Below, in pieces: positions 5,756-32,440 of a DNA stretch of 35,391 nt. The position numbers and the translations under genes were made by a program. Source of the DNA: an uncultured Acidobacteriota bacterium (GTDB lineage Bacteria > Acidobacteriota > UBA6911); the NCBI GenBank assembly GCA_963827655.1, contig CAWHCF010000039.1, positions 1 to 35,391 on the forward strand, read 5' to 3'. How positions within the stretch are numbered: position 1 is the stretch's first letter; every line of letters begins with the position of its first letter. The notes beneath the pieces are model-generated. The model was not told the origin of the DNA and did no database searches. It saw only the letters and a program-made list of their open reading frames with translations.

Positions 5756-5790
5756 ACCACGAAGACGCGAAGACACCAAGAAACGCAAAG
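5756..5790 (+). repeat. Octamer-periodic intergenic repeat, single + arm
   Basis: ACCACGAAG-ACGCGAAG-ACACCAAG-AAACGCAAAG; 31/35 identical to the reverse complement of 16130-16164. Confidence 0.85.
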
Positions 5791-5898
5791 CATCAACGAA
5801 GACGCTGGAATTTATTGCCAACTGAGTCGCAGTATTTGCCAGACTCTGGTTGCAGCCGACGGCCGCTTGGTGTAACTAGGTAATTTCTTGTTTCTGGA

Positions 5899-6134
5899 CG
5901 GGTGAGCAAGATCCCGAACGTGATGTCGGTTCCAGCGCCCGAGGTGGAGATTCTGAAGTTCAACCTGGCCGGCCCGTAATGGCCGTAAGACCCTACTGCC
6001 ATACCGACCATTACTGGCAGGTCTATTTCGACACCAACCGACTGATTCGCGAAATTTTGGGCGAAGCGGGATTTCCGGTCCCGGAGCAGCATTTCTCGTT
6101 TCGTGGCACCGCGATGGCAGCACAAGCATCCTGA
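5899..6134 (+). pseudogene. C-terminal remnant of a small MscS mechanosensitive channel (not in ORF track)
   Basis: With one base added near 5976 it reads RVSKIPNVMSVPAPEVEILKFNLAGPVMAVRPYCHTDHYWQVYFDTNRLIREILGEAGFPVPEQH...*, recognisable as an MscS C-terminal domain. An in-frame TAA at 5881 precedes it and no TM region is present. Confidence 0.75.
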
Positions 6135-6204
6135 ATTCCAATTGTCGATCGCCTGTGGTTGAGTAACCCAAGAGCCCTAAGTCCTGTACATGCCGGGAGG
6201 TCCG

Positions 6205-7252
6205 ATGAGGAGATGGTGGGGGGGAGCCGCTGTCATGTTTTGCTCGTGGATGATCCTGACTTCCGAGTGTCGCGCCGATCAGGTGACACTGAAGAACGGG
6301 ACCCAAATCTCGGGCAAGATTGTCAAGAAAGAAGGGGATGACTCTTTCCCTGAAAGCACCCCCGCTCGGGGATATCACGGTTCCGTGGGCCGAGGTGACG
6401 GCCATCACCTCGGATGACCCGGTTACGGTCATCTTTCAAGACGGAAAGTCCGTCCTGGGAAGGCTGACCAGCCGCGACGGTCAGATCGAGGTCAACGGCG
6501 TAACGGCGCCGTTTGCCCAGGTCGGACAGATCCACAGCGCCGAAGAGAAGGCGAGACTCGACAGACTGAAGAACCCGCCCTGGACGGACCTCTGGGCCGG
6601 TTACTTCGACTTTGGGGCGAGTCTCGCCAAGGGAAATGCGGAAAGTTTGACCATCACCACCATCTTCAAAGCCACCCGTGCCACGCTGAACGACAAGACT
6701 TCGGCCTACTTCCACCAGATTTATGGCCGCGCTACGGTAGAGGGCGTGACCGGCACGAATGCCCAGGCCGTGCGCAGTGGCTGGGCTTACGATCGGAACA
6801 TAAGCAAGCAATTGTTTCTTACCCTGTTCAACGACTACGAATATGACCGGTTCCAGGACCTGGACCTGCGTTTCGTGCTGGGCGGCGCCATCGGGTTCAA
6901 GGCCATCGACACCGAGCGCACCAAGCTGGATTTGCTTGCGGGCCCCTCCTACAACCGGGAGAAATTCTCGACCGGTCTCGTGCGTCACGCGGGGGAGGCG
7001 CTGTGGGGGGACGACTGGACTTACAAGTTGACGTCCACGTCGTCGCTCGAACAGTCGTTCCGAATGTTTCACAACCTGGCCCGCCTCGGAGAGTACCGCA
7101 TCAACTTCGATCTCGTCCTGGCCACTACCATGACAAGGTGGCTGGCCTGGCAGGTCAGCGTGAGCGACCGATACCTGAGCGATCCTCTTCCGGGAAGGGT
7201 GGGTAACGACCTGATCTTTACCACCGGCTTGAGGATTAGGTTTGCGCAGTAG
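6205..7252 (+). CDS. DUF481 (YdiY-like) outer-membrane beta-barrel protein; frameshift near 6335-6350
   Basis: GGGAGG RBS, then a signal peptide and ADQVTLKNG.ISGKIVKK (ORF 6190 frame). Continues in the 6320 frame with W.GYFDFGASLAKGN, YEYDRFQDLDLR.V.G and the terminal strand TTGLRIRFAQ. Confidence 0.8.
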
Positions 7253-7279
7253 CGTCCCTGTGGCAGAGTGAGGACAGAT

Positions 7280-8225
7280 ATGATAGGGCTGAAGCTGAAT
7301 CCCAAACGGAAGGTGGACTTCAAGGTTGGCTCCAAGGGCAAGGTGGAGTTCAAGCTCAAGGAGATCATGGTGCCGCCGGGCCGGAAGGTCTCACTCAAGA
7401 AGGACTACGATCCTGATTTCACGGGGGGCTACAAAGACAAAGAGGGGGCGGTCGAGCAGCTTGCGCTCAACGTCGAGCGGCTCGCAGATCTGCAAGAAAA
7501 GCTATATGCGCAGGATACCTACGCCCTGCTGGTGATCTTCCAGGCCCGCGACGCCGCCGGGAAGGATGGCGCCATCAAGCACGTTTTGTCGGGCGTAAAC
7601 CCGCAGGGTTGCCACGTGACCAGCTTCAAGGCGCCGTCGGCGGAGGAACTGGATCACGATTATCTCTGGCGCGCGGCCAGGGCGCTGCCGGCTCGGGGCA
7701 TGATCGGCATCTTCAACCGCTCGTATTACGAGGAAGTGCTCGTGGTGCGTGTGCATCCGGATTTGCTGGAAAAACAAAGACTGCCCGGTCGCACGGGCGG
7801 CGATGACTTCTGGAAGCGCCGGTTCGAGGAAATGAACAACTTTGAAAAGTACCTGGTCGATAATGGCATCGTGGTCCTGAAATTCTTTCTCAACGTCTCG
7901 AAGGAGGAGCAGCGCCAACGCTTCCTGGCCCGCATTGACGAGTCCGGCAAAGAACTGGAAATTCTCCATAGCCGACTGCCGCGAACGGGCCCTTTGGAAC
8001 GACTATCAGGATGCTTACCAGGAAATGCTCAGCCATACAAGCAAGCCGTGGGCCCCGTGGTTTGTAATCCCGGCCGATCACAAGTGGTTCGCAAGGCTGG
8101 CAATCTCGCAGACCATCTGTGCCGCGCTCGAGGCGCTCGACCTCAAGTTTCCCGAAACAACTGAGCAGCGGCGCCGGGAACTCCTGGAAATCAGGAAAGA
8201 GCTGGTGCGCGAAGCCAAGGACTGA
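7280..8225 (+). CDS. ppk2: Polyphosphate kinase 2 family (class III-like, single domain); frameshift near 7945
   Basis: FQARDAAGKDG Walker A, SFKAPSAEELDHDYLWR and IFNRSYYEEVL. Removing one base at gac-gag-(t)-ccg gives DEPAKNWKFS and joins ORF 7935..8225 (APWFVIPADHKWFAR). Confidence 0.92.
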
Positions 8226-8235
8226 CACTATTACC

Positions 8236-8302
8236 TTGTGTCTCTTTGCATCCTCCGGGTTCTTGCGGTTAAACAAGAGTTACTCAAGACCCGAAGACAC
8301 AA
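8236..8302. repeat. Octamer-periodic repeat, degenerate back-to-back pair (- arm then + arm)
   Basis: TTGTGTCTCTTTGCATCCTCCGGGTTCTTGCGGTT, a short spacer, then ACTCAAGACCCGAAGACACAA. Confidence 0.6.
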
Positions 8303-8334
8303 CGCGGCCTGCAGCCGCACCCAAGATCTAACGG

Positions 8335-10847
8335 ATGAATTCCAACGTTTCCGTTACGATGCGTCGCGTTTTTTGGCTCCTCTCGCTCTGCCCGATGATC
8401 GCCACGCTGCAGGCGCAGTCTCCACAACCCGCAAGTCCCAGCCGTCTGCCTCGGCTTCAGCGGAAACCCGAATCGATGCTATTCCGCTTCCGCAGGTTGC
8501 CGAACAGGCCGACGAATTACCCCGGCTGCTGCGCGACATCCGCCGCAGACTGCCTCCACCCGAAGCACTGGCGCGGGCTGAAAGAGAAACCGCCGCGCTC
8601 GATGAGGAGCTGGGCGAAAAGCTTCGTGAAGTGGGCGAACTGACAACCAGTAGCCCGGCCCTGCTGAAACTCCGCGAGCTGGAACGTTACTGGCGACGCA
8701 AACAGAGTTCCATTACGCCGCTCAAGTACGAACTGAATCAACGGCTGAGCTCGCTGAGCCGTGATATCAGTCTGCTGGAAGCACAACAGGCCCGGTGGCA
8801 AGCGACTCTGCAACAGATGGAGGATCCGGCGGCGTTGCCCGCGATTTCCGACAGCATCCGCGCTGTTCTCTCTGACATCCAGTCCGCCCGATCGCAGATT
8901 CAGCAGCATTTCAATGGTTTTGCCCGCGTTCAGAACCGAATCTCGAGGCAGGATCTAGCCGTCTCGGATGTGCTGGAGACGATTGCCACGGTGAAGGAGC
9001 ACTTCTATGACAGGGCCTTTTCAAAGAACAGTCTCCCCCTGTGGGCCGCGCGCTTCCAACCCGAGCCGGACCAGCCGCTAGAAAGCCCTGCGCGCGCTTC
9101 GTTGATACGCGACTATCACGCCTTGCAGGATTTGCCCAGAGTCCGGCTTTACCTGTTTGGTCTCATCGTTCTCCTTCTAGCGGCGCCCCTGATCGCGCGG
9201 AACCTGAAACGGAGGATCAATGTCTGGATCGAGCGCGGGGTCGTCAAGGGAGACGAAGCATGGTTGTTCAAACGCCCGTCTTCGTTGTTATTCCTGCCCG
9301 GGTTGTTCTGCCTTATTCCGTTCTCTTCGAGGTTGCCCTTCGGCATCGTCATTCTGATTAGCATGTTGCTTCTGATTCCGGTCCTGAGGCTCCTGCCGCC
9401 GTTAATCGATCCCCTGTTCAGACCGATGGTCTTCACTCTGGCCGGATTCTATGCGATGAACGGAATAAAGGCGGTCATTCCCATCTCGCCGCTGCTGTCC
9501 CGGGAGCTTACTGCCGCCGTCACGATTGCGGGCATTGCGGTGTTTGCCTGGCTCATCCGTCCGTCGCGTGTCGGCAAGCTGATGGTTGAAAACCGGGGGG
9601 CGCGACATGCCATTCTCGCCATCCGAGTCATGCTGGTCCTGCTGGCCGGTTCACTCCTGGCCAATATCTTCGGCTATGTTGTCTTGGCGAACTTGCTGGG
9701 CCAGGGAACGCTGCTCGGCGCCTACCTGGCTGTGGTCTTCGGCACGGTCATTTGGGTTGCCCGCCGCGCATTTACCGTCCTTCTGAGAACCGAACGGGCC
9801 GGCAGGCTCGCCATCGTGAACCTGCATCGTAGTCTGATAATCCAATGGTTCACGCGCGCCCTGACCGGAGTTCTCTTCGTGATGTGGCTGGCAACGACGC
9901 TGGAGATGTTTGGACTCCGGAACGAGGTCGTCGACGCTATTTACGCCATCCTGAATCACGAGATCGGGATCGGAGCGTTCGCCTTTACCCTTGGCTCGCT
10001 GCTGCTTTTCGTGCTGATTCTGGTGGTGAGCCTCATGATCGCTCGTCTGCTCAGGTTCGTTGTGGAGAAGGAAATCCTGGCCGGCTTTTCACTGCAGCGC
10101 GGGCTGTCGACGCTGATCTCGACGTCGGCCTACTATGCCGTTCTGTTCATGGGATTCATGCTGGCCCTGGCGGCGACCGGAATCGAGCTGAGCAGGTTCA
10201 CGCTGCTGACCGGGGCCCTCGGGGTCGGCATCGGCTTCGGACTGCAAAACATCTTCAACAATTTCGTTTCTGGAATCATTCTGCTCTTTGAGCGACCTGT
10301 GCAGGCCGGGGACACTGTCGACGTTGGCGGCGTCGGTGGTGAAGTCACCCATATTGGTTTGAGGGCGAGCACCATTCGCACCGGCCTGGGAGCCGAAGTG
10401 ATCGTTCCCAACTCCAGTCTTATCTCCAGCCAGGTGATCAACTGGACCCGGTCTGATAACAAACGCAGAGTTGATCTCGAGGTTCGAGTCGCTTATGGCT
10501 CCGATCTTGCCGTGGTCCTGGGTCTGCTCAAGGACGCCGCTGCCGCCCATCCGAAAATTCTTTCGAAGCCGGAGCCTGTCGCGGTCTTCCTGGGGTTCGG
10601 CGAAAAATCACTCAATTTCGAGCTGCGCTTCTGGGTTCCTCATGGCTTGAGCTGGCCGGAACTCCGGAGTGAAGTCGCGGTGACCGTGGCGGCCAAGCTC
10701 CGGGAAGCCCGCATCAACAGTCCAACTGAGCTGCAGGAGTACCCGCCGAGCGGTGGCGGCTCAGCGAAAGAGAGCGAGAAGAAACAGGAGCTCGCCGGTT
10801 CGCCCGATTCACGGATTAGCCAGGCGCGTGGATCGGGGAATTCCTGA
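8335..10847 (+). CDS. Large MscS-family (MscK/MscM-like) mechanosensitive channel; N-terminal frameshift near 8433
   Basis: A signal peptide in the 8335 frame (MRRVFWLLSLCPMIATLQA) shifts into ORF 8238..10847, which has a coiled-coil periplasmic region, many TMs, GALGVGIGFGLQNIFNNFVSGIILLFERPV.GD, IVPNS..I...VINW and V.VAYGSD. Confidence 0.9.
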
Positions 10848-10922
10848 ATTCCAGCCAGGCTGCCCTTCGACGAAGACGCTCCGGGCAGCGGGCGATTACC
10901 CAATCCCTCGAGGTACTTTCTT

Positions 10923-11972
10923 ATGAATACCCGTTCATTGCAGCTCGTGTTTCTTGGGTCTCTTGCCGGATTCGTCGCCGGCCTTTCCCCGGTTTCCGCT
11001 CGCACGAAAACCGACATACTGCACATGAAGAATGGCGACAAGATCACATGCGAGATCAAGAGGATGGAACACGGCCAGCTTCTCGTAAAGACCGCCTACA
11101 CGAAGGGTACGCTGACCATCAACTGGGAGAAGATCGAGCGCATCGAGAGCAAGCAGTTATTTGTGCTGGAGACCGAACAGGGCAACTACTACTCGGGCGA
11201 GATTCGAACCGACGCCAAGGAGAGTCAGAACGTGGACGTGACCCTGGGAGGAACCGAGACGGTTCTCCGACAAAAGATGGTTGTCTCCATGGAGCAACTC
11301 GGCCGCGGCTTCATCGGGCGAATGAAGGGCGCCGTGGACTATGGATTCAGCTTTGCGCGCTCGAACAACCAAGCCCAGTCCACTTTGCATCTCGATCTCA
11401 ATTCGCGGAGCGAAAACACCTATACCTCGTTTGTCGCAGACTCACTGTTTAGTTCCACGGCCGGCGTCGACACCAACCGGCACTCGGCATCCACGAGCTA
11501 CTCCCACCGCCTGAGGTCCTCGAACTGGGGTCTCATCGGCTTTGCCACCGCATTGAAGAGCGACCAACAACAGCTCGACCTGCGCACTAATCTGGGCGGA
11601 GGCGTTGAGCGGCGCTTTATTTACACCAACCGGAACTATCTGATCGGCACGTTCGGAGCCGTTTATACGAAGGAAAAATTCTCCGAGCCGTTCAACGGCG
11701 CGAGTCATTTCAACAGCGCCGAAGGCGCCCTCGGTATCAAGCACTCCAGTTTCCGGTTTGATTCGACCGAGTGGATAAACACGCTGTGGGTCTATCCCAG
11801 CATGACCGATGGCGGCCGCTTGCGCAGTACGTTCGACAGCAGCTTGTACCTCGACCTGGTAGGCGATCTCTACTTTCGTCTCGGGTTCTACCACAACTAC
11901 GACAGCCGGCCGCCCACAGACACGCCCAAAATTGATTACGGAGGCACCACCTCGGTCGGGTGGTCGTTCTGA
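10923..11972 (+). CDS. Second DUF481-like outer-membrane beta-barrel protein
   Basis: Signal peptide, KTDILHMKNGDKITCEIK N-domain, QLDLRTNLGGG, YDSRPP and C-terminal aromatic strand SVGWSF. Confidence 0.78.
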   Translation: MNTRSLQLVFLGSLAGFVAGLSPVSARTKTDILHMKNGDKITCEIKRMEHGQLLVKTAYTKGTLTINWEKIERIESKQLFVLETEQGNYYSGEIRTDAKESQNVDVTLGGTETVLRQKMVVSMEQLGRGFIGRMKGAVDYGFSFARSNNQAQSTLHLDLNSRSENTYTSFVADSLFSSTAGVDTNRHSASTSYSHRLRSSNWGLIGFATALKSDQQQLDLRTNLGGGVERRFIYTNRNYLIGTFGAVYTKEKFSEPFNGASHFNSAEGALGIKHSSFRFDSTEWINTLWVYPSMTDGGRLRSTFDSSLYLDLVGDLYFRLGFYHNYDSRPPTDTPKIDYGGTTSVGWSF

Positions 11973-11981
11973 GGGTTCGCA

Positions 11982-12051
11982 TTGTGTCTTTGTGTCTTCG
12001 TGGTTAGAGCTGTCTGACAAATACCTCTAAGACTCAAAGACACGAAGAAAC
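11982..12051. repeat. Octamer-periodic repeat, back-to-back pair
   Basis: TTGTGTCTTTGTGTCTTCGTGGTT-agagctgtctgacaaat-ACCTCTAAG-ACTCAAAG-ACACGAAG-AAAC, lying between convergent genes. Confidence 0.88.
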
Positions 12052-12069
12052 AGCATTAGAAGTCATCTC

Positions 12070-12936
12070 CTAGACCGCCCTGGGAGCCGCGGCGCGGCGG
12101 CGTCTGATCCAGATCATGTACGGAATCGACACAACCGCGCCCACGAGCACATAGAGCAGGAGCGCGGCAAGCGCGAGCTTCTGCTCGGGGAAGATGGCCT
12201 GCGCAATTCCGACCGCAACCCCGGGGTGCCTCGAGGCCGTGGAGAGCGCGAGCACGGTGCGATCTTCGAGGTCCGGCCCGCCCAGCAGATGACCTACTGC
12301 GAGCCCGACAACGACGAACCCTGCGAGTCCGGCGATGGTCCCGTTGCCGATCAGGGACCAGATCGCCGGGAATTGCGTGAACAAAACGGGCACGATGGCT
12401 GCGGCGAGCATTATCGTAGCCACCAGGGAAACCGGCGCGGCAATCCGATCCGCAAAGGCCGGCGCCACACTGTGGACTGCAATGCCGGCAGCAAGCGGCG
12501 CGAGTACCGTCATGAGGACGATCATCGCTATCGCTCCGGGCGACAATGCGAGGGGAATCGAGAAGATTCGCCCCAGTACCTCCAGCGCGAGCGGCACGAA
12601 CACAATCGAGAGCAACGCCGCCGCCGCCAGCAGGCCGATCGTGTAAGACCGCTTTCCGCCTGCCTTCAGCTTTTTCTTTGTGAGGACGGGCGGAAGAGGC
12701 GACACCGACAACGCACCTATGGCGACCTTCACAGCCGGATGCAAATCGAAGGCTGCGATGAGTACGGCGGCGAACACGGGCATCACGACGTTCATCGACA
12801 GCAGCGACCGTGCGAGCTGCCCCGGCCTGCGGAAGAGATATATCGCGTCTTGCGGGCTCGCTTTGAGAGCGAAACCGAAGACCGTCAGAAAAATGCTTAC
12901 CCTGACCGCCAGAATAATCAGATCAGCCAAATTCAT
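12070..12936 (-). CDS. Bile acid:sodium symporter (BASS/SBF-like) family transporter
   Basis: Highly hydrophobic 288 aa with RSLLSMNVVMP, SPLPP, VGHLLGGP..EDRTVLALSTASRHPGVA; TAAGGAG RBS. Confidence 0.85.
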   Translation of the reverse strand: MNLADLIILAVRVSIFLTVFGFALKASPQDAIYLFRRPGQLARSLLSMNVVMPVFAAVLIAAFDLHPAVKVAIGALSVSPLPPVLTKKKLKAGGKRSYTIGLLAAAALLSIVFVPLALEVLGRIFSIPLALSPGAIAMIVLMTVLAPLAAGIAVHSVAPAFADRIAAPVSLVATIMLAAAIVPVLFTQFPAIWSLIGNGTIAGLAGFVVVGLAVGHLLGGPDLEDRTVLALSTASRHPGVAVGIAQAIFPEQKLALAALLLYVLVGAVVSIPYMIWIRRRRAAAPRAV

Positions 12937-12950
12937 CTCTGGTCTCCTTA

Positions 12951-13093
12951 GGGCTCGCGCAGAAATAACTTCACATTCTGGCGCGAGAGTCGGTGGTCAA
13001 TCATAAACCGGTTTTTGTTGCAGCTACCTGGCACGCTGAGGATCGCGCCCCTTCGGGCTGCAGCAGAATGCGAACTTATTTCTGCGCGAACCC
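12951..13093. mobile_element. MITE-A, short (143 bp) copy
   Basis: 30-bp imperfect TIRs (GGGCTCGCGCAGAAATAACTTCACATTCTG and reverse complement GGGTTCGCGCAGAAATAAGTTCGCATTCTG, 27/30), flanked by TTA and TTT; colinear with the inverted copy at 21047-21283. Confidence 0.85.
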
Positions 13094-13119
13094 TTTTCAC
13101 GGCTTGGCAATGTCTGTTC

Positions 13120-13476
13120 TTACTTTTTCTCGGGTTCGGAGCCGGGTTCCGTGTATTTTTCGAGATCCCTCTCGAGGAAGAAGTTGAGGAAGGTCCGAAT
13201 GACCGCGATCGCTCCAAGTTCCCCGATGTCCTGCCAGGTGGGAGAGATCACGCTCCGCACGATGTCTGCCGCCAGCTCGAACTCCAGTCCCAGCAGCAGC
13301 CACATCCCGAAGCGCAACCATACCGACTTCCTTTCGCCCATGCTTTTCTGCGGCACCAGGACAATCTTGAGTATGCGCAGGAATGCCTCCAGCGCCCCGA
13401 AGCCGACGATGGCGATCGCCGCAACTTCGACCGCCAGCGCCACGTAGCTCGCAACTTCCTTGATCACTTCTTCCAT
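13120..13476 (-). CDS. DUF1622 family membrane protein
   Basis: WLLLGLEFELAADIVRSVISPTWQDIGELGAIAVIRTFLNFFLERD signature. Confidence 0.9.
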   Translation of the reverse strand: MEEVIKEVASYVALAVEVAAIAIVGFGALEAFLRILKIVLVPQKSMGERKSVWLRFGMWLLLGLEFELAADIVRSVISPTWQDIGELGAIAVIRTFLNFFLERDLEKYTEPGSEPEKK

Positions 13477-13606
13477 ACGAAGATCCTCCGCCCAGGAACA
13501 TCGACCGCCTCAGACTCAAAGCCAAAGAAAGCTCTTTCGGAGTTTGGCAAATTTTTCGCGGCGAGGCTTTGGAGTGCGGTCGCTGGCAGAGATCTCTTTG
13601 TATTTA

Positions 13607-13675
13607 CTTCGTGTCTTCGTGGTTAGAGCTGTCGGTCAAATACCACTAAGACTCAAAGCCACGAAGAAACACGAG
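13607..13675. repeat. Octamer-periodic repeat, back-to-back pair; near-identical direct copy of 11982-12051 including spacer
   Basis: CTTCGTGTCTTCGTGGTT-agagctgtcggtcaaat-ACCACTAAG-ACTCAAAG-CCACGAAG-AAACACGAG. Confidence 0.88.
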
Positions 13676-13760
13676 AATATTGCCAAAAAAGCGAGAATTT
13701 ACGACCTGGTAATACGAAGAGGCAAAAGAACACTCTGGTCGAGGCAAGGCACCGCACTGG

Positions 13761-14744
13761 TCATCTCGTCACGCGAACGATGCAGCGGAACCCCAAGTGG
13801 CACGTCGAGGTATCGATCGGCTGCGCCATTCGAGCCGCCGGCCGGTAACGCCGGCAGTAGTTCGGCGCGCAGAGATACGACCCGCCTTTCATCACCTTGC
13901 GCGGGATTTTGACGTCGGGCATGTTTGGGTCGTAGCTCCCTTCCTGCTCTCCACCCTTGGGATTAAAGTTTGCGCAGCAGGATTGAGGGACCTTGCTATG
14001 TTCCCGATACCAGTCCGTGGTCCACTCCCAGACGTTGCCGGCCACGTCGCAGAGCCCGTAACCGTTCGGCGGAAAGACGCCGACAGGCGACGTCCCCTCA
14101 TATCCGTCGCTCTTCAGGTTCTGCCAGGGAAACTCCCCTTGCCAGGTGTTGGCCATCTGCTTGCCGCCGGGGGTGAATTCGCTGCCCCAGGCGAACTCCG
14201 CCCCTTCCAGTCCTCCGCGCGCGGCAAACTCCCACTCCGCCTCGGTTGGCAACTCTTTTCCAATCCATTTTGCGTAGCTCTCGACATCCTCGAATGCCAC
14301 CTGAACCACCGGGTTCTTCCCGCGTCCTTTCAACGTGCTGGTCGGTCCTTCCGGATGGCGCCAGTTCGCGCCCGGAACGTAGGTCCACCAGTTGTAACAA
14401 TCACGAAGATCGACGCGCTGGCGCGGCTTTTGGAAAACAACCGAAGCGGGCACCAGCAATTCCGGCTTGGCTCCCGGGTAGTCCGCTGGATTCGGTGGCC
14501 GCTCGGCCAGCGTGACATGACCCGTAGCCTCCACAAAGCGACCGAACTCCTCGTTGGTCACCGGGTACCTGTCAATCCAGAAACCGTCTACTGTGGCTTG
14601 ATGCGCAGGCGCTTCTTCCGGGTAGTGGTTGTCGGAGCCCATGAGGAACGTTCCTCCCGGGACCCACACCATGTTCTCGAACGGCGGCTTCTCAGGCGCC
14701 CGTGAATCACCCTGGGCCAAAGCCATGTTCATCGAATTGCTCAT
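13761..14744 (-). CDS. Formylglycine-generating enzyme (SUMF1/FGE, sulfatase maturase)
   Basis: VPGGTFLMGS..YPEEAP, LPTEAEWEFAARGG, NGYGL.D.AGNVWEW and catalytic KGGSYLCAPNYCRRYRPAAR. Confidence 0.93.
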   Translation of the reverse strand: MSNSMNMALAQGDSRAPEKPPFENMVWVPGGTFLMGSDNHYPEEAPAHQATVDGFWIDRYPVTNEEFGRFVEATGHVTLAERPPNPADYPGAKPELLVPASVVFQKPRQRVDLRDCYNWWTYVPGANWRHPEGPTSTLKGRGKNPVVQVAFEDVESYAKWIGKELPTEAEWEFAARGGLEGAEFAWGSEFTPGGKQMANTWQGEFPWQNLKSDGYEGTSPVGVFPPNGYGLCDVAGNVWEWTTDWYREHSKVPQSCCANFNPKGGEQEGSYDPNMPDVKIPRKVMKGGSYLCAPNYCRRYRPAARMAQPIDTSTCHLGFRCIVRVTR

Positions 14745-15116
14745 AGCTTCTCCTTTTACTCCGCGGCTCAGTTTCGCAGAGACCCAAGGGCCGCCGCACG
14801 CTCAGCCGCTTTTCCAACTTGAGAGTCCAGCGCGTCAGATTTGTGCCGCCGGAAGTAAGAGCCGCTCGCTCGAGCTGGAAAACTCGCAAGGATTCTAGAG
14901 TTTTAGCCCACCAGGAGGACCGATTGCCAGAGCCGGAAGCCGTCCAGGTTGCGGTCGGCTGAGTCCATGATTGAAGCCTCCGCCGTCTTGTCACTCAGCC
15001 CGTCGGTCATTATCCCTTTTTGGGCCTTTCGGGCGTACTTCGGGCCGGCGATCCAATGATATTGACCGCGTCGCGGTTGCCACCGTTCCGGTTACCCCGG
15101 TACCCGAATGAATGAG

Positions 15117-15901
15117 TTATCGAAAATTGAAGCCGACTATCAATTTGATGCTCGGACTTCCATAGGCTCCCGCCCGCAGTTCCGCAAACAACCCGCCTCG
15201 CTTCTGAATCCCCATGATAAGGTTAAGTCCGGTGCTGAAGTCCCAATCTCCGAAATCGATCTGCTGCTCCTGCCTCCTCGAAACCACGCCTGCTTCAAGT
15301 GAATACCCAGGCCGGCACCAAAATAAACGTTCCAGAATTCAATCTGTTGGGTGCTTCTATCGCGAGCCGTCACGGGTATGAAATACACGCCGTCGAGGTT
15401 AAGCGAGTTGATCTTGGTGACCTCCCCGAAGCCGAACTCATAGCTGGGGCGAGCAAAGAATCTCTTCGTGATCGGCAGCTGAGCGTGAGCGCCCATGTAG
15501 ATTATCGCCGGATCGAAACCGACGCCGCCACGAACGCCAAATGTCGCGCGGTCCACCGCCTCTTTCATGCTTTGTGGAAGAGCCGTCGCCGGCGTATCGC
15601 AGGTGGCCGACAACTGCTCGATTTTCGAAACACGGAACAGATCCTCGCCCTGTTCCCGAACCGTCATCCCGGTCAACCTGACCTTTTGACCTGAGGTGTA
15701 ACGCGCCAGATCGTCCAAACCGGTGACCAGAAGAGTGAAACCGGTCTCTGCTTCCCGTATCGAATAGAATCCCGGGCGGTCGGCCCGGGCGCTCAGGGGG
15801 CAACCGATAATCGTGTCGCGGGTCTGACCAAAAACCTGCACTGTCAGTCCGGACCACATTAAAATGATCCACACTCTCATGGGCAAAACTCGACTCAACA
15901 T
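15117..15901 (-). CDS. Putative outer-membrane beta-barrel protein with small N-terminal domain; frameshift(s) near 15270-15297
   Basis: AAAAGGAG RBS before ATG 15901, signal peptide and alternating strands (FGVRGGVGFDP, RPSYEFGFGE, NVYFGAGLG). A shifted frame continues IDFGDWDFSTGLNLIMG...IKLIVGFNFR* and ends at 15117. Confidence 0.65.
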
Positions 15902-16127
15902 GTCTAAGCTCCTTTTCACACAGTGTATTCCTGGCCGCTAAACGTCTCCCTGAGCCGATACTAGTGAAGTGTCTTTTCGTATGGAATCAAGCAGATTTGG
16001 TATTTGGGCGGATATTTTCCCGTAACAACCGAGTCCGAGGCAGTACCTCGGTTGTGGGTCCATCGTAGCCGGATTCAGTATTTTCCTTGAGTCAACAATA
16101 GCCTGATTTCAAAAAAGGGGGATGCGA

Positions 16128-22908: not shown

Positions 22909-22986
22909 GCGCTTAGCGAAACGTTCAAACCAACATGTTGTCGTTCAGAAGGGGCCTTCGTTCGGGGCGAAGTCCCCGAACGAACC
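22908..22986. mobile_element. Element B (79 bp double-hairpin insertion), copy 1
   Basis: About 5 differences from the reverse complement of 28484-28561. Flanked by TTA/CTA; 11-bp stem TTCGTTCGGGG/CCCCGAACGAA; palindrome CAACATGTTG. Confidence 0.8.
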
Positions 22987-22991
22987 CTAGA

Positions 22992-23050
22992 GCCTTTGCG
23001 TCTTCATGGTTTGTGCGGGACAACCAACCACCACTAAGACGCAAAGACTC
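22992..23050. repeat. Octamer-periodic repeat, back-to-back pair (left arm interrupted by element B)
   Basis: GCCTTTGCGTCTTCATGGTT, spacer, ACCACTAAG-ACGCAAAG-ACTC. Confidence 0.8.
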
Positions 23051-23070
23051 TGTTCGATGCGGAGGGAATG

Positions 23071-23730
23071 CTATTTCGGCTGCGGAACTTCCCGCAGGTA
23101 GGGTTTTTTCGTCTTCCAGCCGCCCGGGAATTTCTGCTTGGCCTCTTCGTCGGAAACCGATGTGAGGATGATGACGTCCTGTCCCGGCTTCCAGTTCACG
23201 GGCGTGGCAACCTTGTGCTTTGCCGTGAGCTGCATCGAATCAAGCACTCGCAGCACCTCGTCGAAGTTGCGGCCCGTGCTCATCGGGTAGGTGAGCATCA
23301 GCTTGATCTTCTTGTCGGGTCCGACAACGAAGACGGAACGTATCGTGGCATTGTCCATCGCCGTGCGTGACTTCGCGCCGGTGGCATTGGGATGGATCAT
23401 GTCGTAGAGCTTTGCGACCGCCAGGTCGGAATCCCCGATAATCGGGTAGTTCGGCGCGTGCCCCTGGGTTTCCTCGATGTCCTTGGACCATTTCTCGTGA
23501 TCGCCGACCGAATCGATGCTCAGGCCGAGGACCTTGCAGTTGCGTTTCTCGAACTCGGGCTTCAGGCCGGCCATGTACCCCAGCTCCGTGGTGCACACGG
23601 GCGTGAAGTCCTTGGGATGCGAGAACAGGATCGCCCAGCCGTCCCCGATCCATTCGTGAAAGCGAATCGTGCCTTGTGTGGTCTCAGCAGTAAAGTCCGG
23701 CGCCTCATCGCCTATGCGTAGTGGCATCAT
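23071..23730 (-). CDS. 1-Cys peroxiredoxin (Prx6 subfamily)
   Basis: FSHPKDFTPVCTTELG, YPMSTGRNFDEVLR and VATPVNWKPG motifs; GGAGG RBS. Confidence 0.95.
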   Translation of the reverse strand: MMPLRIGDEAPDFTAETTQGTIRFHEWIGDGWAILFSHPKDFTPVCTTELGYMAGLKPEFEKRNCKVLGLSIDSVGDHEKWSKDIEETQGHAPNYPIIGDSDLAVAKLYDMIHPNATGAKSRTAMDNATIRSVFVVGPDKKIKLMLTYPMSTGRNFDEVLRVLDSMQLTAKHKVATPVNWKPGQDVIILTSVSDEEAKQKFPGGWKTKKPYLREVPQPK

Positions 23731-23774
23731 GCACCTCCATTGAAGTTTCTAAGTCGAATTTTTGCGACTTATCG

Positions 23775-23803
23775 ATGCTACAGCGCAGTGAAACCTGTGT
23801 CAA
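23775..23803 (-). promoter_or_regulatory. Putative sigma70 promoter of the peroxiredoxin
   Basis: Minus strand TTGACA (23803-23798), 17 bp, TAGCAT (23780-23775). Confidence 0.6.
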
Positions 23804-23832
23804 GGCGGACACCGATTGCTTCGCGTTTCCAC

Positions 23833-23914
23833 TGTCTTCGAGTCGTCGTGGTTAGTGCGGCGGTAACAAAACCCGAACCTCGAACGACACGAAGACTCGA
23901 AGAAACGCGAAGAA
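23833..23914. repeat. Octamer-periodic repeat, back-to-back pair
   Basis: TGTCTTCGAGTCGTCGTGGTT, spacer, ACCTCGAACG-ACACGAAG-ACTCGAAG-AAACGCGAAGAA. Confidence 0.8.
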
Positions 23915-25381
23915 CCTGTCGTCAGTCCTTCTCCCCGCCGTCACGCTGGGATCCGGAGCGCCGACCGGGATCGGGGGTTCTTTCTTCAAGCTGGCCTGGA
24001 AATCGTCAATGATCTTTCCGACCGGGTAGTAGACCCAGGTGTTCAGGGAGCCGATGCTGTTGCGTTCCTTCGGGTCCTCGATCAGGTTGAACACCCGTCG
24101 ATTGGGCAGCGGCTGCACCGGGTCGAACATGTACTCCTGCCAGACGAAGTGTACCTTCCAGTTGCGCCATTTGACGGCGTGCAGCACATCGCCCACGTAG
24201 CACGGAAAGCCTTCACGGTTGGATTTCTCCTGTTTGCCGAGAAGGAACCCGCCCTGGTCCATGCCGTCAATGATGCGGTCTCTCGGCACGTCTCCCCCTG
24301 CGAAGCGGGCCAAGGTCGGGAAAATGTCCACCTCGTGAACGATCTCGTTGCTGACGCGGCCGGCGGGAACCCGATCGGGCCAGCGAACGATGAACGGCAC
24401 TCGCAGGGAGCCTTCCATGGCCGTGAAGTATGAGCCCGACCACGGGCCACCCCAGCCGCGCCAGGGAAGCGTCTCCTCGGGACCGTTGTCGCTGGTGAAG
24501 ATGACGATGGTGTTCTTCTCGATCCCCAGTTCCTGGACGGCATCGACGATCTGGCCGACGTGATGATCCATCTCCGCGAGCGAGTCGGAGAACTCGCCGA
24601 AGCCGGTCTTGCCCATGAAATCGGGATGCGCCAGCGTCGGATAATGCACCAGGGTGAAGGGCACGTAGGCGTAGAACGGCTTGCCCGCCTTCACGCTCCG
24701 TTTCATGAAGTCGATGGTCCGGCGCGTGACTTCGGTGTCGATCAGCCGCCGCGTTTTCAGGTCGTAGACTTCCAGTTGGCGAGTCTTCTCGCCCTTGCGC
24801 CCCTCCAGAATGTGGGGCACGTGCATGTCGTCCGCTTTCGGATCGAAGCCGGTGGCGTACGTCCAGGTGCTTTCCGAAGTGGAGTTGGGAATTCCGTACC
24901 ATTCGTCGAAGCCCTGGTTCGTGGGGAAGCGGCCTTCGGTCGCGCCGAGGTGCCACTTGCCGAAGTGGCCGGTGGCGTAGCCGCGTTGGGCCAGCACCTC
25001 GGCCATGGTGATTTCCCACTGGGTCAGGCCGTAGAGCGCTCCGCCGCGATTGACGCGCATGGTCCCGGAACGGAGGGGAAAGCGGCCGGTCATGAGGGCC
25101 GAGCGGCTCGGCGTGCACTGGGGTTCCACGTTGTAATTCAGCAACCGGAATCCTTCCGTGGCCAGCTTGTCGATGCGCGGGGTCGGCGCTCCGCGCAGGA
25201 TGCCGCCCCCATAGCAGCCGACTTCGCCGTAGCCCAGGTTGTCGGCCATCATGAAGACGATGTTCGGCTTGTCGCTGGAAGCGCTCGCGGGTTGTTTGGC
25301 TTGCTCCGCCGCGGCCCCATAGCCCAGCACGACTCCCAGTCCCAGAACGACCCCGATCATCCGGCGTTGGTTCGTCAGCAT
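23852..25381 (-). CDS. Cys-type arylsulfatase with signal peptide (true stop possibly at 23922)
   Basis: KPNIVFMMADNLGYG, CTPSRSALMTGR (CxPxR), GYATGHFGKWHLG, FTSDNG and EGSLRVPFIVRWP motifs; AAGGAGG RBS. Confidence 0.94.
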   Translation of the reverse strand: MLTNQRRMIGVVLGLGVVLGYGAAAEQAKQPASASSDKPNIVFMMADNLGYGEVGCYGGGILRGAPTPRIDKLATEGFRLLNYNVEPQCTPSRSALMTGRFPLRSGTMRVNRGGALYGLTQWEITMAEVLAQRGYATGHFGKWHLGATEGRFPTNQGFDEWYGIPNSTSESTWTYATGFDPKADDMHVPHILEGRKGEKTRQLEVYDLKTRRLIDTEVTRRTIDFMKRSVKAGKPFYAYVPFTLVHYPTLAHPDFMGKTGFGEFSDSLAEMDHHVGQIVDAVQELGIEKNTIVIFTSDNGPEETLPWRGWGGPWSGSYFTAMEGSLRVPFIVRWPDRVPAGRVSNEIVHEVDIFPTLARFAGGDVPRDRIIDGMDQGGFLLGKQEKSNREGFPCYVGDVLHAVKWRNWKVHFVWQEYMFDPVQPLPNRRVFNLIEDPKERNSIGSLNTWVYYPVGKIIDDFQASLKKEPPIPVGAPDPSVTAGRRTDDRFFAFLRVFVSFEVRVLLPPH

Positions 25382-25406
25382 GGGAAACCTCCTTGGTCAA
25401 TTGGGT

Positions 25407-25649
25407 TCAGTAGCGGCTCCTTTCGCGCCGAAGCAGTTCGACACCGCTCGTTTGGAGGGTTTTCCTACCGTAAATCCTTTTCAGGCGCGCCAGGAAATCG
25501 GGACGTTTGGAGGCCGGTCGAGGCTGCGCTGGGATCAGCCGGGCGATCACCCTTTTGCGCTTCGTGACCTGGATCTCCTCGCCCTCCTGCAGGAGGTCTT
25601 CAACATGAGAAAATCGATATCGAAGGTCCCGAACCGTCACCGTCTTCAT
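25407..25649 (-). CDS. Phd/YefM-type antitoxin (no adjacent toxin)
   Basis: MKTVTVRDLRYRFSHVEDLLQEGEEIQVTKRKRVIARLIP is a typical prevent-host-death N-terminus; 80 aa. Confidence 0.82.
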   Translation of the reverse strand: MKTVTVRDLRYRFSHVEDLLQEGEEIQVTKRKRVIARLIPAQPRPASKRPDFLARLKRIYGRKTLQTSGVELLRRERSRY

Positions 25650-28451: not shown

Positions 28452-28456
28452 TTGTT

Positions 28457-28573
28457 AATACCACTAAGACACGAAGTCGCTAAGGTTCGTTCGGGGACTT
28501 CGCCCCGAACGAAAGGCCCTTGTGAACGACAACATGTTGGTTTGAACGTTCACTAAGCGCCTAAGAAACACAA
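28457..28573 (+). repeat. Octamer-periodic repeat + arm interrupted by element B
   Basis: Removing 28484-28564 gives AATACCACTAAG-ACACGAAG-TCGCTAAG-AAACAC, colinear with AATACCACTAAG-ACTCAAAG-CCACGAAG-AAACAC at 13639-13672. Confidence 0.82.
28484..28561. mobile_element. Element B (78 bp double-hairpin insertion), copy 2, flanked by TAA direct repeats
   Basis: TAA at 28481-28483 and 28562-28564; inverted copy of 22908-22986. Confidence 0.82.
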
Positions 28574-29089: not shown

Positions 29090-29163
29090 GCTGTCGTCGC
29101 GGTGGACAAGTGACCGGCATCCGGAGGCCTCGCGCGGCTATCGGAATTTCTCCACCTGAGTTG

Positions 29164-29571
29164 ATGATTAACCAGACGATCTCCCACTATCGAATAACCG
29201 CCAAGCTTGGCGAAGGCGGGATGGGCGAGGTCTATCGCGCCCATGATCCCAGGCTTGGGCGCGACGTCGCGATCAAGATCTGCGCCGAGCGATTCAGCGA
29301 GCACTTCGAGCGCGAGGCGCGGGCGGTCGCTTCATTGAACCATCCCTGTATTTGCACGCTCTACGATGTCGGTCCCGATTACCTCGTGATGGAGCTGGTC
29401 GAGGGGCCGACTCTGGCGGAGCGAATCCGTCAAGGCCCCATTCCGGCGGAAGAGTCGCGGGCCATTGCCCGTCAAATTGCCGATGCACTCGAAGCGGCAC
29501 ATGAGCGAGGCATCGTTCACCGCGGTTTGAAGCCCGCGAACGTGGCCGGATCGCGGCGGAAGGCTATGTGA
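29164..29571 (+). pseudogene. Truncated Ser/Thr kinase (N-lobe to catalytic loop only; HRD replaced by HRG)
   Basis: HYRITAKLGEGGMGEVY, DVAIK, FEREARAVASLNHP and IVHRGLKPANV, then a stop overlapping the next start (GTGA). No DFG or APE motif follows. Confidence 0.8.
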
Positions 29572-32353
29572 TCGGCCAGACCCTGGGTCATTACAGAATC
29601 GAATCGAAGCTGGGTCAGGGCGGCATGGGGGTCGTCTACGCGGCCCGTGATTTGCACCTCGGCCGGCGGGTGGCGATCAAAGTGCTGCCGCCTGCGGCCG
29701 TGGCCGATCCTGACCGGAGGCGGCGCTTTGTTCAAGAAGCCCAGGCCGCTTCCACGCTGAATCACCCTAACATCCTGCACATCTACGACGTCGAAGCGAC
29801 CGGCGCCGAAGACGGTAGTCCGGCGGACTTCATCGCGATGGAGTACGTCTCGGGACGGACGCTCGACCGTCTGATCGCCGGCAGGGGCCTGCCCGTCGAC
29901 CAAGCCTTGCAGTATGCGGCGCAGATTGCCGGAGGCCTCGCCGCCGCGCACGCGGTCGGGATCGTCCACCGCGATCTGAAGCCCGGCAATGTGATGGTGA
30001 ACGAACAGGGTCTGGTCAAGATCCTCGACTTCGGGCTGGCGAAGCTGCTCGAGCCTCTCGAAGCTGATGAGATCGCCAGCACCCAAGCGATCCAGCCGGG
30101 GACCCAGGCGGGCGCGATTCTGGGAACCGTCCCGTACATGTCGCCCGAGCAGGCAGAAGGCAAGAGCGTGGACGCGCGATCGGACATCTTCTCCTTCGGC
30201 GCCGTGCTCTACGAGATGATCACGGGCCGGCGGGCGTTTCCGGGGGACTCCACGGCGACCACGCTCGCCGCCATCCTCCACCAGGAACCGAAGCCCGTTT
30301 CAGAGCTCGTGAAATCCGTGCCACGGGAGCTCGAGCGCATCGTCGGCTCAGTGCTTGAGGAAGGATCCAGCCCGGCGATTCCAGCACCTGGACGATGTCA
30401 AGGTCCTGCTCGATCAGCTCCGGGACGACATCGACCGCGGCAAGGACGCAGTGGGCGGAGAATCCGCCCCGCCCGCGCGCCGGGCGATTGGGCCGCTGGC
30501 GCTCGCTGCCGCGGTCGCGGTGCTTCTTGCGGTGGCGGGATTCGTCTGGTGGAAGACGCGGCCGGCGCCGCCGCACCGAGGGCCGGGGCTCACGCGCTTG
30601 ACCTCCGATAGCGGCCTCACCACCGATCCGGCGCTCTCGTCCGATGGCAGGCTGCTGGCCTACGCCTCCGACCGCGCGGTGACGGCAGGCGCGGAAGACA
30701 ACCTCGACCTCTGGGTGCAGCAGCTCCCTGCCGGCGAACCTCTCCGCCTGACACGCCACGCCGCCGACGACCGCGAGCCCAGCTTCTCGCCCGATGGGAC
30801 GAGGATCGCGTTCCGCTCGGAGCGCGACGGGGGCGGGGTCTATACCATGCTCGGCGCTCGGCGGGGACGAGAGGCTGATCGCACCCTATGGCCGCCGCCC
30901 GGCGTTCTCGCCGGACGGCGAATCCATCGTTTACTGGACCGGCGTCCCGCTCGAATCCCGGGTACGCTGTCAACGGCAAGATCTTCGTCGTGCCTGCCCT
31001 GGGAGGCCAAACCAGGGAGGTGCAGACAGGCGTGGAGAGTGCCGGGCTGCCGGTCTGGTCTCCCGATGGGAAGACGGATCCTGTTCGTGCGTTGGGTGGT
31101 AGAGAGCGGCGCCCGCCGCCGCGGGCCGGAGTGGTGGCTGACCACTCTCGACGGTACCATTACACAGGTTGCCGGCAGCGAGTACTTCGCCGAGCATCGG
31201 CTGACGGAGCCCAACCCGGTGGCCTGGCTGGCGGGCGGAGACCGCGTCGTCTTCACGGCCAGGTTCGCCGACAGCGTCAACGTCTGGCAGGTCCCGATTT
31301 CGACGAAAACGTGGAAGCTCACATCCGCGCCCGAGCGGCTCACCTTCGGCTCCGGCCTCGAGGCCAGGCCTTCGATCGCGGTCCCGGCGGGAGGGAGCGC
31401 GCGGCTGGTGTTTGCAGCCCTGGTCGAGAACATCAACATCTGGGCGCTTCCTCTCGACGCCGCTCAGGGGCAACCCAGCGTCGAGCTCTCCAGGTTGACG
31501 CAGACCGTTGCCTCCGACAGCAATCCCGCGCTCACTCTCGACGGCCGGCGCATGTTCTTCACTTCCAACCGCGCGGGGAACCGGGATATCTGGGTGAAGG
31601 ACCTCGCCAGCGGCAAAGAAACCAACCTCACCAACACCCCGGTGGACGAGTGGAGGCCAACCATCAACGCCGACGGCTCCAAAGTGGCTTACCGGATGAT
31701 GGAGACGCCGTCGCCCTCCATTTACGTTCTGCCCGTCGCCGAGGGCTCCCAGGGCGCGCCTCAGCCGGGTGTAGCGCAGAAGATATCGATACCCGGGCAT
31801 TCTGGGTACCCATGGTCCTGGTCGTCCGACGGCAGAAAGCTTCTCTACAACTGCCCCGCCAGGGAAGCCGTGCGTCTCTTCGATGCGGGATCCGGCGAGA
31901 CGACGCAGGTGCTGGGTCCGCTGTGCTTCCAGGTTCACTTCGCACCGGACGATCGCTGGATTGTCTTTACCCGGCAGTACCCCAACGAGCGTGCAGCCGG
32001 CTTTCATCGCGCCGGTCGATCGCATGACAGCATCGGAAAAGGATTGGATCGCTGTTACCGATCGTGCCACCTCTGTCGTCGCCTCTCCCCGGTGGTCGCC
32101 AGACGGAAACCTGATTTACCTCGTCTCCATGCTTGACGGGTTTCGTTGCATCTGGGCGCAGCGCCTGAACCCTGCCACGAAGCGCCCCGAGGGCTCGCCG
32201 ATTCCCATCTATCACTCCCATGGTTCCCGGCGCAGCTTGCTCAACGTCGGTCTGAACCTGCTGGAGATCTCGGTGGCGCGGGACAAGATAGCCTTCCCGC
32301 TGGGCGAGGTCACCGGCAACCTGTGGACGACGACGCTGGAAGGCGCGAACTGA
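29568..32353 (+). CDS. Membrane Ser/Thr protein kinase with TolB-like (PD40) beta-propeller; about 5 frameshifts (~30345, ~30850, ~30950, ~31070, ~31990)
   Basis: GQGGMGVVY, VAIK, HRDLKPGN, DFGLAK, YMSPEQ and DIFSFG, then CLRKDP..RFQ, a TM helix and repeated P..SPDG..IAF.S motifs. These are spread over ORFs 29568, 30355, 30794, 30888 and 31883. Confidence 0.88.
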
Positions 32354-32407
32354 ACAGCTTCAGAATGCCTTTGGGATCGCTGTTGCGGCCGGGATTCAAT
32401 GCGAAGC

Positions 32408-32440
32408 TATTCTATGGCGTCTTCGCGTCTCTGCGGTAAA
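32408..32440 (-). repeat. Octamer-periodic repeat, single - arm
   Basis: Reverse complement reads TTTACCGCAGAG-ACGCGAAG-ACGCCATAG-AATA. Confidence 0.65.

Follow-up and report, generated by a model that had tools for sequence, protein, structure and literature searches.

Bacterial genomes carry interspersed palindromes of several families, among them ERIC, Correia and RUP. The closest described system to the repeats considered here is that of REPINs and their RAYT genes: in the available excerpts of PMC3733652, GTAG or CGTC tags define the two REP superfamilies, and the excerpts of PMC3116915 and PMC3337134 give a gene flanked by repeat doublets as the layout known for RAYT genes and REPINs, within a population of doublets plus singlets. 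A second comparison is Coxiella's intervening sequence (IVS), which in the excerpted text of PMC4990558 is a selfish element of 428 nucleotides (nt) in helix 45 of precursor 23S rRNA and contains an S23p open reading frame (ORF). Here we analyse a stretch of 35,391 nt from an uncultured Acidobacteriota bacterium (GTDB lineage UBA6911; assembly GCA_963827655.1, contig CAWHCF010000039.1), called the window below, in which repeat arms with an 8-nt period occur at nine sites. We consider it likely that these arms belong to a single dispersed, non-coding palindromic repeat family of ~1000 arms, of the REPIN, BIME or MITE kind and linked to genes for GxxExxY proteins (TIGR04256/PF13366), and that the gene blocks between them are not cassettes.

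As in REPIN-RAYT systems, short extragenic palindromes occur by the hundred, many of them as singlets beside a complete form that is an inverted hairpin doublet; the repeats also flank a small gene of low copy number (in two relatives, G051 and G033), and the repeat variant differs by lineage. The differences lie in the partner, here a PD-(D/E)xK nuclease of ~116 amino acids (aa) rather than a single-copy Y1 HUH tyrosine transposase, and decayed in the window genome; in the arms, which start with ACCRC and are built of tandem units of 8-9 nt; and in the partnership, which is here a proposed one. With BIMEs and MITEs the repeats share a non-coding palindrome of ~100 nt that is intergenic, lies in either orientation and is present or absent between strains, but the internal octamer periodicity is unusual in that company; no parent insertion sequence (IS) with matching terminal repeats turned up, although no systematic search for one was made. 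The 23S rRNA intervening sequences (S23p/Avd-like, PF05635) are alike in having a tiny ORF between inverted arms able to pair, whereas their protein family differs and the window arms lie outside rRNA. In the literature passages available for GxxExxY or PDDEXK_3/PF13366, supplements excluded, we found no description of a partnership between these genes and repeats, and the one GxxExxY passage places the gene next to a reverse transcriptase, not repeats. The gene-repeat partnership thus appears undescribed, while the repeat itself is ordinary in kind.

Arm doublets in the window and across the genome

The window is the whole of contig C39 of its genome (G000 below; 53 contigs, 8.18 Mb, 59% G+C, completeness 90%). 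An original prediction, made from the letters of the window, had named the nine sites with their strands and described the paired ones as always back-to-back. Both inspection and an arm profile, built from 623 strict copies in G000 and used with cut-offs of E<=1 and E<=10, agree with that description. All nine sites carry arms of the form ACCAC-NAAG-NCNC-NAAG; six are back-to-back doublets (6/6 of the paired sites), in which a minus arm ending ...GTGGT is followed by a short spacer and a plus arm starting ACCAC, and three are single arms. The profile finds 12 window arms at E<=10. Two sites are degenerate and score below E 10, though visible by eye: at 8236-8302 this holds for the whole doublet, at 23833-23858 for a minus arm. 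Every one of the six doublets folds as a hairpin, with z of -2.1 to -5.2 against shuffles. The sites are as follows.

5753 to 5795, plus strand: solo plus arm, ACCAC GAAG ACGC GAAG ACAC CAAG AAAC GCAAAG, between two convergent ORFs, with no minus partner (5756-5791, E 5.5e-5)
8236 to 8302, unstranded: degenerate head-to-head doublet between PPK2 and MscS, found by eye, below E 10; hairpin z -2.25
11977 to 12055, unstranded: head-to-head doublet in orientation A, its loop TAGAGCTGTCTGACAAAT, flanked by the convergent genes DUF481 and SBF (minus arm 12007-11977, E 5.8e-4; plus arm 12027-12055, E 0.013); z -2.57
13607 to 13725, unstranded: head-to-head doublet, orientation A, with right-hand extension GCCAAAAAAGC... 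(minus arm 13626-13607, E 0.024; plus arm 13641-13675, E 2.6e-4); z -4.81
16128 to 16202, unstranded: head-to-head doublet with short loop ACAGCGCTA, B-like, between two minus-strand genes (minus arm 16165-16128, E 2.9e-6; plus arm 16171-16189, E 2.8); z -2.08
22981 to 23050, unstranded: head-to-head doublet of the second loop subfamily, its left side fused to another dispersed repeat at 22915-22986 (minus arm 23012-22981, E 6.9; plus arm 23030-23050, E 0.11); z -5.15
23833 to 23914, unstranded: head-to-head doublet lying between Prx and the sulfatase gene, in orientation A; its loop, TAGTGCGGCGGTAACAAAACC..., is of the second subfamily (plus arm 23886-23912, E 0.1); z -2.64
28458 to 28490, plus strand: solo plus arm directly 3' of the ankyrin/PSCyt1 stop codon, fused to a GC hairpin and a 72-nt repeat at 28484-28550 (E 4.2e-4)
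32409 to 32444, minus strand: weak solo minus arm with head GCGGT, between convergent genes, 81% to 16146-16171 (32430-32409, E 9.2)

Similarities between these copies were also picked up by a repeat search. The solo plus arm at 5753-5795 is 84% complementary to the minus arm at 16126-16170, the degenerate minus arm at 23833-23858 was recovered at 85% identity, and the copies at 13607-13725 and 11988-12052 are 92% identical over 65 nt. The extension GCCAAAAAAGC... of the former is common to a subfamily of full-length copies.

The same arms are found throughout G000. The 8-nt period of the original prediction is clear at this scale: AAG-N5-AAG-N5-AAG occurs 661 times, compared with 94, 128 and 56 times when the period is set to 7, 9 and 10. 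A strict motif, ACCAC.AAG.C.C.AAG, has 625 occurrences on 50 of the 53 contigs, and a strict 25-nt pattern is present 188+185 times and never in the backwards control. The whole-genome scan with the arm profile, a check proposed together with the original prediction, gives 1028 arms at E<=1, a number that rises to 1244 at E<=10, against 0 and 1 in G000 reversed without complementing. The motif is far more abundant than expected by chance.

Taking neighbouring arms within 60 nt as a pair, we counted 153 (-,+) pairs and 2 (+,-) pairs across the genome, so that the back-to-back arrangement seen in the window is general. Nearly half of the former (72 of 153) have a head-to-head spacing of exactly 19 and a common loop, TAGAGCTGTCTAACAAAT, with 37 in one contig orientation and 35 in the other. 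The form is [minus arm ending GTGGT][~18-nt asymmetric loop][ACCAC plus arm], where an arm consists of about four 8-nt units NCNC-NAAG. Within a doublet the arms are distinguished by differences at fixed places, with ACCAC-GAAG-ACAC-GAAG on one side and ACCAC-TAAG-ACTC-AAAG-ACAC-GAAG on the other. A doublet is therefore copied whole, as a single directional unit of ~105 nt. Conservation extends over this ~105 nt in general and over ~170 nt in the subfamily that includes the window copy at 13607-13725, and a second loop subfamily, TAGTGCGGCGGAACAAAACCA, takes in the window copies at 22981-23050 and 23833-23914. The 40 copies closest to a 94-nt core consensus deviate from it by 3 to 18 mismatches. 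The ends of the element are fuzzy, and target-site duplications could not be read from the doublet copies.

At E<=10 there are 195 doublets, which leaves 681 solo arms. A loop end is kept beside the head in 289 of these, and a GYGGY partner head lies within 32 nt in 157, so many of the singles are decayed halves. By our own crude gene calls (6118 genes, 80% of the genome), 136 of the 153 doublets are intergenic. The window, at 12 arms compared with a mean of 5.6 per 35 kb, has ~2x the genome's arm density, and 4.7% of 35-kb windows reach >=12. REPIN- or BIME-like hairpin doublets, the first of two readings in the original prediction, are thus supported by a ~105-nt unit with a conserved asymmetric loop in 153-195 mostly intergenic copies, alongside 1028 arms, in which the inverted doublet is the complete unit. 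The hairpin family is of the selfish or neutral repeat kind.

Across the class to which G000 belongs, the strict doublet pattern was observed in 14 of 137 genomes, and at most 1 hit was obtained in the backwards control. It is amplified, with at least 20 hits, in four of them, each of which has its own loop consensus:

G000: 129 forward and 120 reverse hits
G007: 84 forward and 84 reverse hits
G033: 164 forward and 149 reverse hits
G051: 12 forward and 14 reverse hits

Amplification of the doublet is patchy and lineage-specific.

GxxExxY genes between periodic arms

The original prediction had suggested that similar arms flank GxxExxY genes in other genomes, and had noted that the window holds no such gene. 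Both statements stand. Since no GxxExxY ORF (TIGR04256/PF13366) lies between arms in the window, its repeats are gene-less derivatives. For the link itself, we carried out a wide scan with one genome per species, in which the best 80 of at least 602 confirmed GxxExxY loci were considered and 78 had enough flank. The hosts among these best 80 are Acidobacteriota, Planctomycetota, Verrucomicrobiota, Chloroflexota, several proteobacterial classes, Bacteroidota and Omnitrophota, as well as a cyanobacterium, a chlamydia and two methanogen-related archaea. With a flanking arm defined as ACC[AG][CT], 1-2 nt, RAG, 4-6 nt, RAG, a plus arm is found upstream of 54 of the 78 genes and a minus arm downstream of 55; 48 loci have both and 61 at least one. 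The opposite arm orientations occur at 11 and 15 loci, and the motif in 12 of 1600 shuffles. A period of 8 or 9 nt is seen in 20 of the 24 strongest pairs. The window arms fall within this arm family, which is defined in the present analysis, for they have the head ACCRC, then 8-9-nt units ending in RAG, and inverted copies. Judged by these common features, the window arms are shown to be kin to the arms that flank GxxExxY genes in many phyla.

Closer relatives give the same picture. At 30 GxxExxY loci from these genomes, the inverted complementarity of the two flanks exceeds the 95th percentile of a control of 300 random small G000 genes in 22 cases and the 99th in 18. The 25-nt arm pattern occurs in 11 of 41 related genomes (a tally that takes in the unpublished G034 as one row), and 10 of the 11 have a GxxExxY match; the remaining one, G010, has a single arm hit and no match. 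All four genomes with amplified doublets have a GxxExxY match, and the unit type at the resident gene is that of the genome's own doublets: GAAG in G000 and G007 (C689), CAAG in G033 (C37). In G051, a near-complete relative in four contigs, the single intact GxxExxY gene (C4:422896-423237) has a doublet on either side; the two share one loop and are members of the dispersed family of G051 itself. By eye, a doublet is likewise present on each side of the G033 gene at C37. In G013, a gene-bearing unit is present in four near-identical copies, one of them without the minus arm. The unit extends upstream of the plus arm by a leader of ~31-47 nt and, where the minus arm is kept, ~15 nt past it; the gene-bearing unit therefore multiplies. 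The single GxxExxY match of G000 itself, at C19:35523-35875, is split over three frames and contains one TAA, and is thus decayed; it lies on a contig other than the window's, between a plus arm (TACCGC-GAAG-ACGC-GAAG...) and a minus arm that both point inward.

The GxxExxY protein, at ~116 aa, is a small PD-(D/E)xK nuclease. Across the 78 sequences the GxGxLExxY motif is kept, and in the D...ExK signature D is invariant while E and K are present in at least 90%. An AlphaFold model (pLDDT 95.2, pTM 0.87) has a minimal PD-(D/E)xK fold. No solved structure is related to the protein by sequence; the closest by fold are Cas4 (4ic1, E 6e-4), exonucleases, archaeal Hjc resolvases and a homing endonuclease domain, all with TM <= 0.55, and PADLOC returns weak Cas4-like matches (E 2e-4 to 8e-3). 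With fold and PADLOC matches this weak, no specific enzyme type was assigned.

From the arrangement of genes and arms we infer mobilisation by GxxExxY. By analogy with RAYTs and REPINs, the protein would recognise the periodic arms, or the hairpin, and would copy or maintain the doublets in trans. The geometry of a doublet is that of the two ends of a gene-bearing element abutted; a circular or tandem intermediate would be hypothetical. As its own gene has decayed, G000 would be left with ~1000 arms in slow decay, an orphaned population, except if the unassembled 10% contains an intact gene. Put broadly, and as a tentative proposal that we hold to be possible though short of probable, GxxExxY nucleases and hairpin arms with 8-9-nt periods may form a second REPIN-RAYT-like partnership, working differently, across many phyla and some archaea: the nuclease would read the units as a code and copy or maintain gene-less doublets up to hundreds of copies, G000 would be an orphaned case, and S23p/Avd-like genes with 6-7-nt arms would be a sister class. 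GxxExxY, a large uncharacterised family of small nucleases, in any case gains a concrete and testable context in the periodic inverted arms, which in some genomes are amplified into hundreds of hairpin doublets. If such a nuclease does move or maintain hairpins, REPIN-RAYT would no longer be the sole known long-lived partnership of repeat and enzyme in bacterial chromosomes, and the periodic arms would offer a simple sequence code for study.

Several observations weigh against the reading that we favour. GxxExxY genes are also present in 13 of the 30 genomes without the AAG-type pattern, and G013 has 19 GxxExxY matches but 1 doublet hit, so the gene does not always amplify doublets. The usual gene-bearing form has single inward arms, [+] gene [-], while the amplified form is [-][+], and doublets on both sides were found at 4 of the 78 loci. 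Although the sole GxxExxY gene of G000 is dead, some doublets are only 3-5 mismatches from the 94-nt consensus. GxxExxY genes could settle beside hairpins instead of moving them. The arms of a doublet do not covary: they pair at 22.03 of 30 positions with each other and at 22.10 +/- 0.135 when shuffled among doublets, and three mismatch positions between them are conserved. Because the arms pair no better with each other than with those of other doublets, covariation lends a selected hairpin no support. Lastly, neither a transposition event nor a target-site duplication, an excision product or a circle was observed, and the strain evidence consists of short unjoined contigs.

Among the alternatives, the one that fares best is a host function, in which the hairpins would be terminators, mRNA-stabilising stem-loops, RNase III sites or nucleoid-protein arrays that GxxExxY genes merely use or adjoin; we judge it unlikely. 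The intergenic placement, with some convergent excess (36 doublets in 1058 convergent gaps, 77 in 3960 tandem and 23 in 1047 divergent), would suit such a role, as would the folding of all six window doublets and the invariant octamer positions (C.C.AAG), which resemble a recognition code. A plus arm also lies 5-40 nt upstream of many GxxExxY starts, where its units often read GGAG or GAGG and so look like ribosome-binding sites. A host function should, however, be more conserved than a doublet whose strict form is missing from 123 of the 137 class genomes and amplified in four, with a loop specific to each of them. Moreover, loop orientation is independent of gene direction and hence unbiased relative to transcription, covariation is absent as described above, near-identical strains differ in the presence of an arm-bearing repeat (see below), and Rfam at its gathering threshold returned 0 matches in the window. 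A classical REP/RAYT system or an IS-derived MITE, moved by a Y1 (IS200/RAYT-like) or DDE transposase and only incidentally associated with GxxExxY, is very unlikely: despite the doublet-plus-singlet population described for REPINs in the excerpts cited above and one Y1_Tnp match in G000 (C35:41745-42074, 36.8 bits, in a 234-aa open frame), this sole Y1 gene has no arm within 2 kb, the closest being ~2.4 kb off at E 8.9, the doublet heads are ACCAC or ACCGC and not the GTAG or CGTC given in the excerpts of PMC3733652, and the same arm family is tied to GxxExxY genes at 48-61 of 78 loci in many phyla.

The question of cassettes, relatives and strains

The second reading in the original prediction was that the doublets are pdif- or attC-like recombination sites bounding mobile modules, which would make the window a tandem cassette array. 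We regard this as highly improbable. The prediction had stressed that each gene block is bounded by inward-facing arms, and this pattern is indeed seen; it carries no information of its own, since every site is a (-,+) doublet and inward-facing bounding is the geometric outcome. The sites resemble pdif sites and integron attC in being imperfect palindromes between gene blocks, but they have no Xer-like or IntI context, are spread genome-wide instead of forming one array, and show no alternation in orientation; the window genes lie on both strands, and no cassette is common to several loci. An integron would have an IntI integrase, an attI site and attC sites after co-oriented cassettes, whereas the Pfam search of 30 window ORFs gave no integrase domain, nor any recombinase, Xer-type recombinase or nuclease domain. 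The pdif module has alternating XerC/XerD sites of 11-6-11, compared with a site of ~105 nt with 8-nt periodic arms here and loop orientations along the window of ?, A, A, B, A, A. The doublet sequence is presumably unlike dif.

The genes point the same way. The ~1000 arms occupy most contigs, and the window's density is only ~2x the mean. ORFs that short inward pairs, 434 to 1425 nt apart, tightly enclose elsewhere in G000 were listed, as the original prediction had proposed, in search of a nuclease, recombinase or RAYT. All 20 are unrelated ordinary genes with no recurring family; UPF0047, SDR, Ku, glyoxalase, epimerase and class A beta-lactamase are among them, as is one integrase arm-binding fragment. 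Elsewhere in G000 there is no close paralogue or recent duplicate of any window gene, the best match being 64% in amino-acid identity. Most gene labels of the prediction were confirmed by Pfam (DUF481 twice, PPK2, MscS, SBF, FGE, M48, DUF308+Metallophos, MaoC, MFS, Prx and kinases), and its 'secreted protein' block is a sulfatase and an ankyrin/PSCyt1 protein; the ORFs labelled 'MscS remnant', 'DUF1622' and 'OMP' have no Pfam match at E<=1e-5.

Some observations do favour mobile blocks. The window arms sit at gene-block boundaries. In G002 the kinase and Prx are divergent and ~850 bp apart, while in the window they are ~5.4 kb apart with the sulfatase and ankyrin/PSCyt1 genes between them, and this ~5.4-kb stretch has the 23833-23914 doublet at one edge and the arm at 28458 at the other, which fits the insertion of a block. 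The window M48 gene is 53% identical to a gene of G016, from another family, against ~40% in same-family genomes, so the region may be accessory. A 91-nt inverted repeat in the same part of the window (22920-23010 / 28460-28550), on the other hand, is composed of two copies of a separate repeat with ~70 copies in the genome.

Comparison with relatives was limited by distance, the nearest genomes compared with G000 being other genera. Against 20 relatives, the DNA of window positions 5000-24999 matches only in single conserved genes and in repeats. The neighbours of M48 are conserved in 0 of 9 relatives, and this includes the M48-phosphoesterase pair, which has no doublet between its members; because that doublet-free pair is likewise not conserved, synteny at this distance cannot separate the readings. 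Prx occurs without flanking arms in G002, G007 and G017.

Strain data are more telling. Soil and rhizosphere runs from different studies contain 0.2-0.45 of the sampled words of window 7000-16999, and Logan contigs of four runs, short and unjoined, were placed on window 5500-25499 and read where they cover it. In the window, DUF481 and PPK2 are 15 nt apart. In runs X2 and X4 a contig that ends at the 3' end of DUF481 (7264) continues into 37-38 letters with a plus arm and then the GC hairpin. Ahead of 7262 there are 127 foreign letters in the PPK2 contig of X2, and the DUF481 contig of X1 has 128 extra letters. Other strains thus have an arm-bearing repeat between DUF481 and PPK2 that is absent in the window, with both genes kept, so that the strains differ here by a repeat and not by a gene block. 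The insertion at 7262-7264 shows a 3-nt overlap that is inconsistent between runs. This difference comes close to what the original prediction had named as speaking against cassettes, a gene order that is kept while only the short repeat comes and goes; with the contigs unjoined, the evidence is strong but not complete. A contig of X4 also spans the 16128-16202 doublet and both neighbouring genes, and another from the same run has 147 letters in place of 20784-21296, where other repeats lie, with MaoC and MFS kept. Contig joints between arms at different places in the window were mostly other metagenomic copies of the repeat and were not used, and two short-side joints (22990>23891 and 12026>12950) were set aside.

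Taken with the doublet geometry, the genome-wide spread, the non-alternating loops and the unrelated enclosed genes, these strain data leave tandem cassette borders unsupported, and the idea of mobile gene cassettes with a new type of site is removed for this window. The gene blocks between the arms are ordinary chromosome. As dispersed homology the arms may favour rearrangements; they are possible rearrangement hot spots and are relevant to the assembly and binning of such soil genomes.

Other repeats and neighbouring genes

A second class of periodic arms was observed beside a different small gene. G000 has 11 genes for four-helix-bundle proteins (PF05635, S23p/Avd-like), at C51:53465-53773, C32:33728-34027, C26:254324-254551, C4:22263-22460 and seven other loci, and 10 of the 11 lie between periodic inverted arms of tandem 6-7-nt units. 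The arms of the same number, 10/11, score above the control's 95th percentile. Their units vary by copy (CAGAAGT, CACGTG, GTTCCC, ACGATTG and GTCATTT, for example), and a gene-less tail-to-tail doublet of the CAGAAGT type is present in the window at 20917-20992. These arms look like a sister class to the GxxExxY arms. The flanks of a PF05635 gene at C46:143282-143849 are composite: an octamer minus arm comes after AGGATTT units on one side, and on the other AAATCCT units pass without a gap to GTGGT, a loop and an octamer plus arm. Such a structure suggests recombination between modules of the two arm classes, or insertion of one into the other.

Three further repeats lie in the window. The first, of ~245 nt, is at 12945-13095 and 21038-21290; G000 has about a dozen near-full-length copies at 80-87% identity, and copies 83-95% identical occur in four other genera of the family (G007, G010, G008 and G006). 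It is unusually conserved for a non-coding repeat and has no Rfam match. The second, of ~72 nt, ends in a GC hairpin, TTCGTTCGGGG(N6)CCCCGAACGAA, and is found at 22915-22986 and 28484-28550. G000 contains ~70 copies of it with 86-100% identity; in about a dozen, the repeat is fused to an octamer arm. Its two window copies constitute the 91-nt inverted repeat mentioned above. The third is a ~57-nt motif (…TGGAATC.AG.AGATT.GGTATTTGGGC) at 5024-5089, 15953-16009 and 20146-20214, where it lies just upstream of, and co-oriented with, three unrelated genes: DUF1269, the ORF at 15140-15919 and the DUF308-phosphoesterase. No further copies were found in G000 by BLAST, and the motif could be a common promoter, operator or leader.

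Some of the window genes merit comment on their own account. The plus arm of the 23833-23914 doublet falls within the last ~20 codons of the sulfatase ORF (23852-25381, minus strand), so the C-terminus of the sulfatase may have been altered by the repeat, or the true stop codon may be elsewhere. The M48 gene (16203-17666) is most similar to the gene of G016, which has one TGA inside; in seven re-scored same-family genomes the identity is 35-39%, which suggests transfer or differential loss in this region. At 5812-11972 the window has DUF481-PPK2 and then MscS-DUF481, while in G018 (C275) MscS directly adjoins PPK2. With the Pfam-unconfirmed 'MscS remnant' placed at 5812-6432, an older MscS/DUF481/PPK2 operon may have been partly duplicated in the window.

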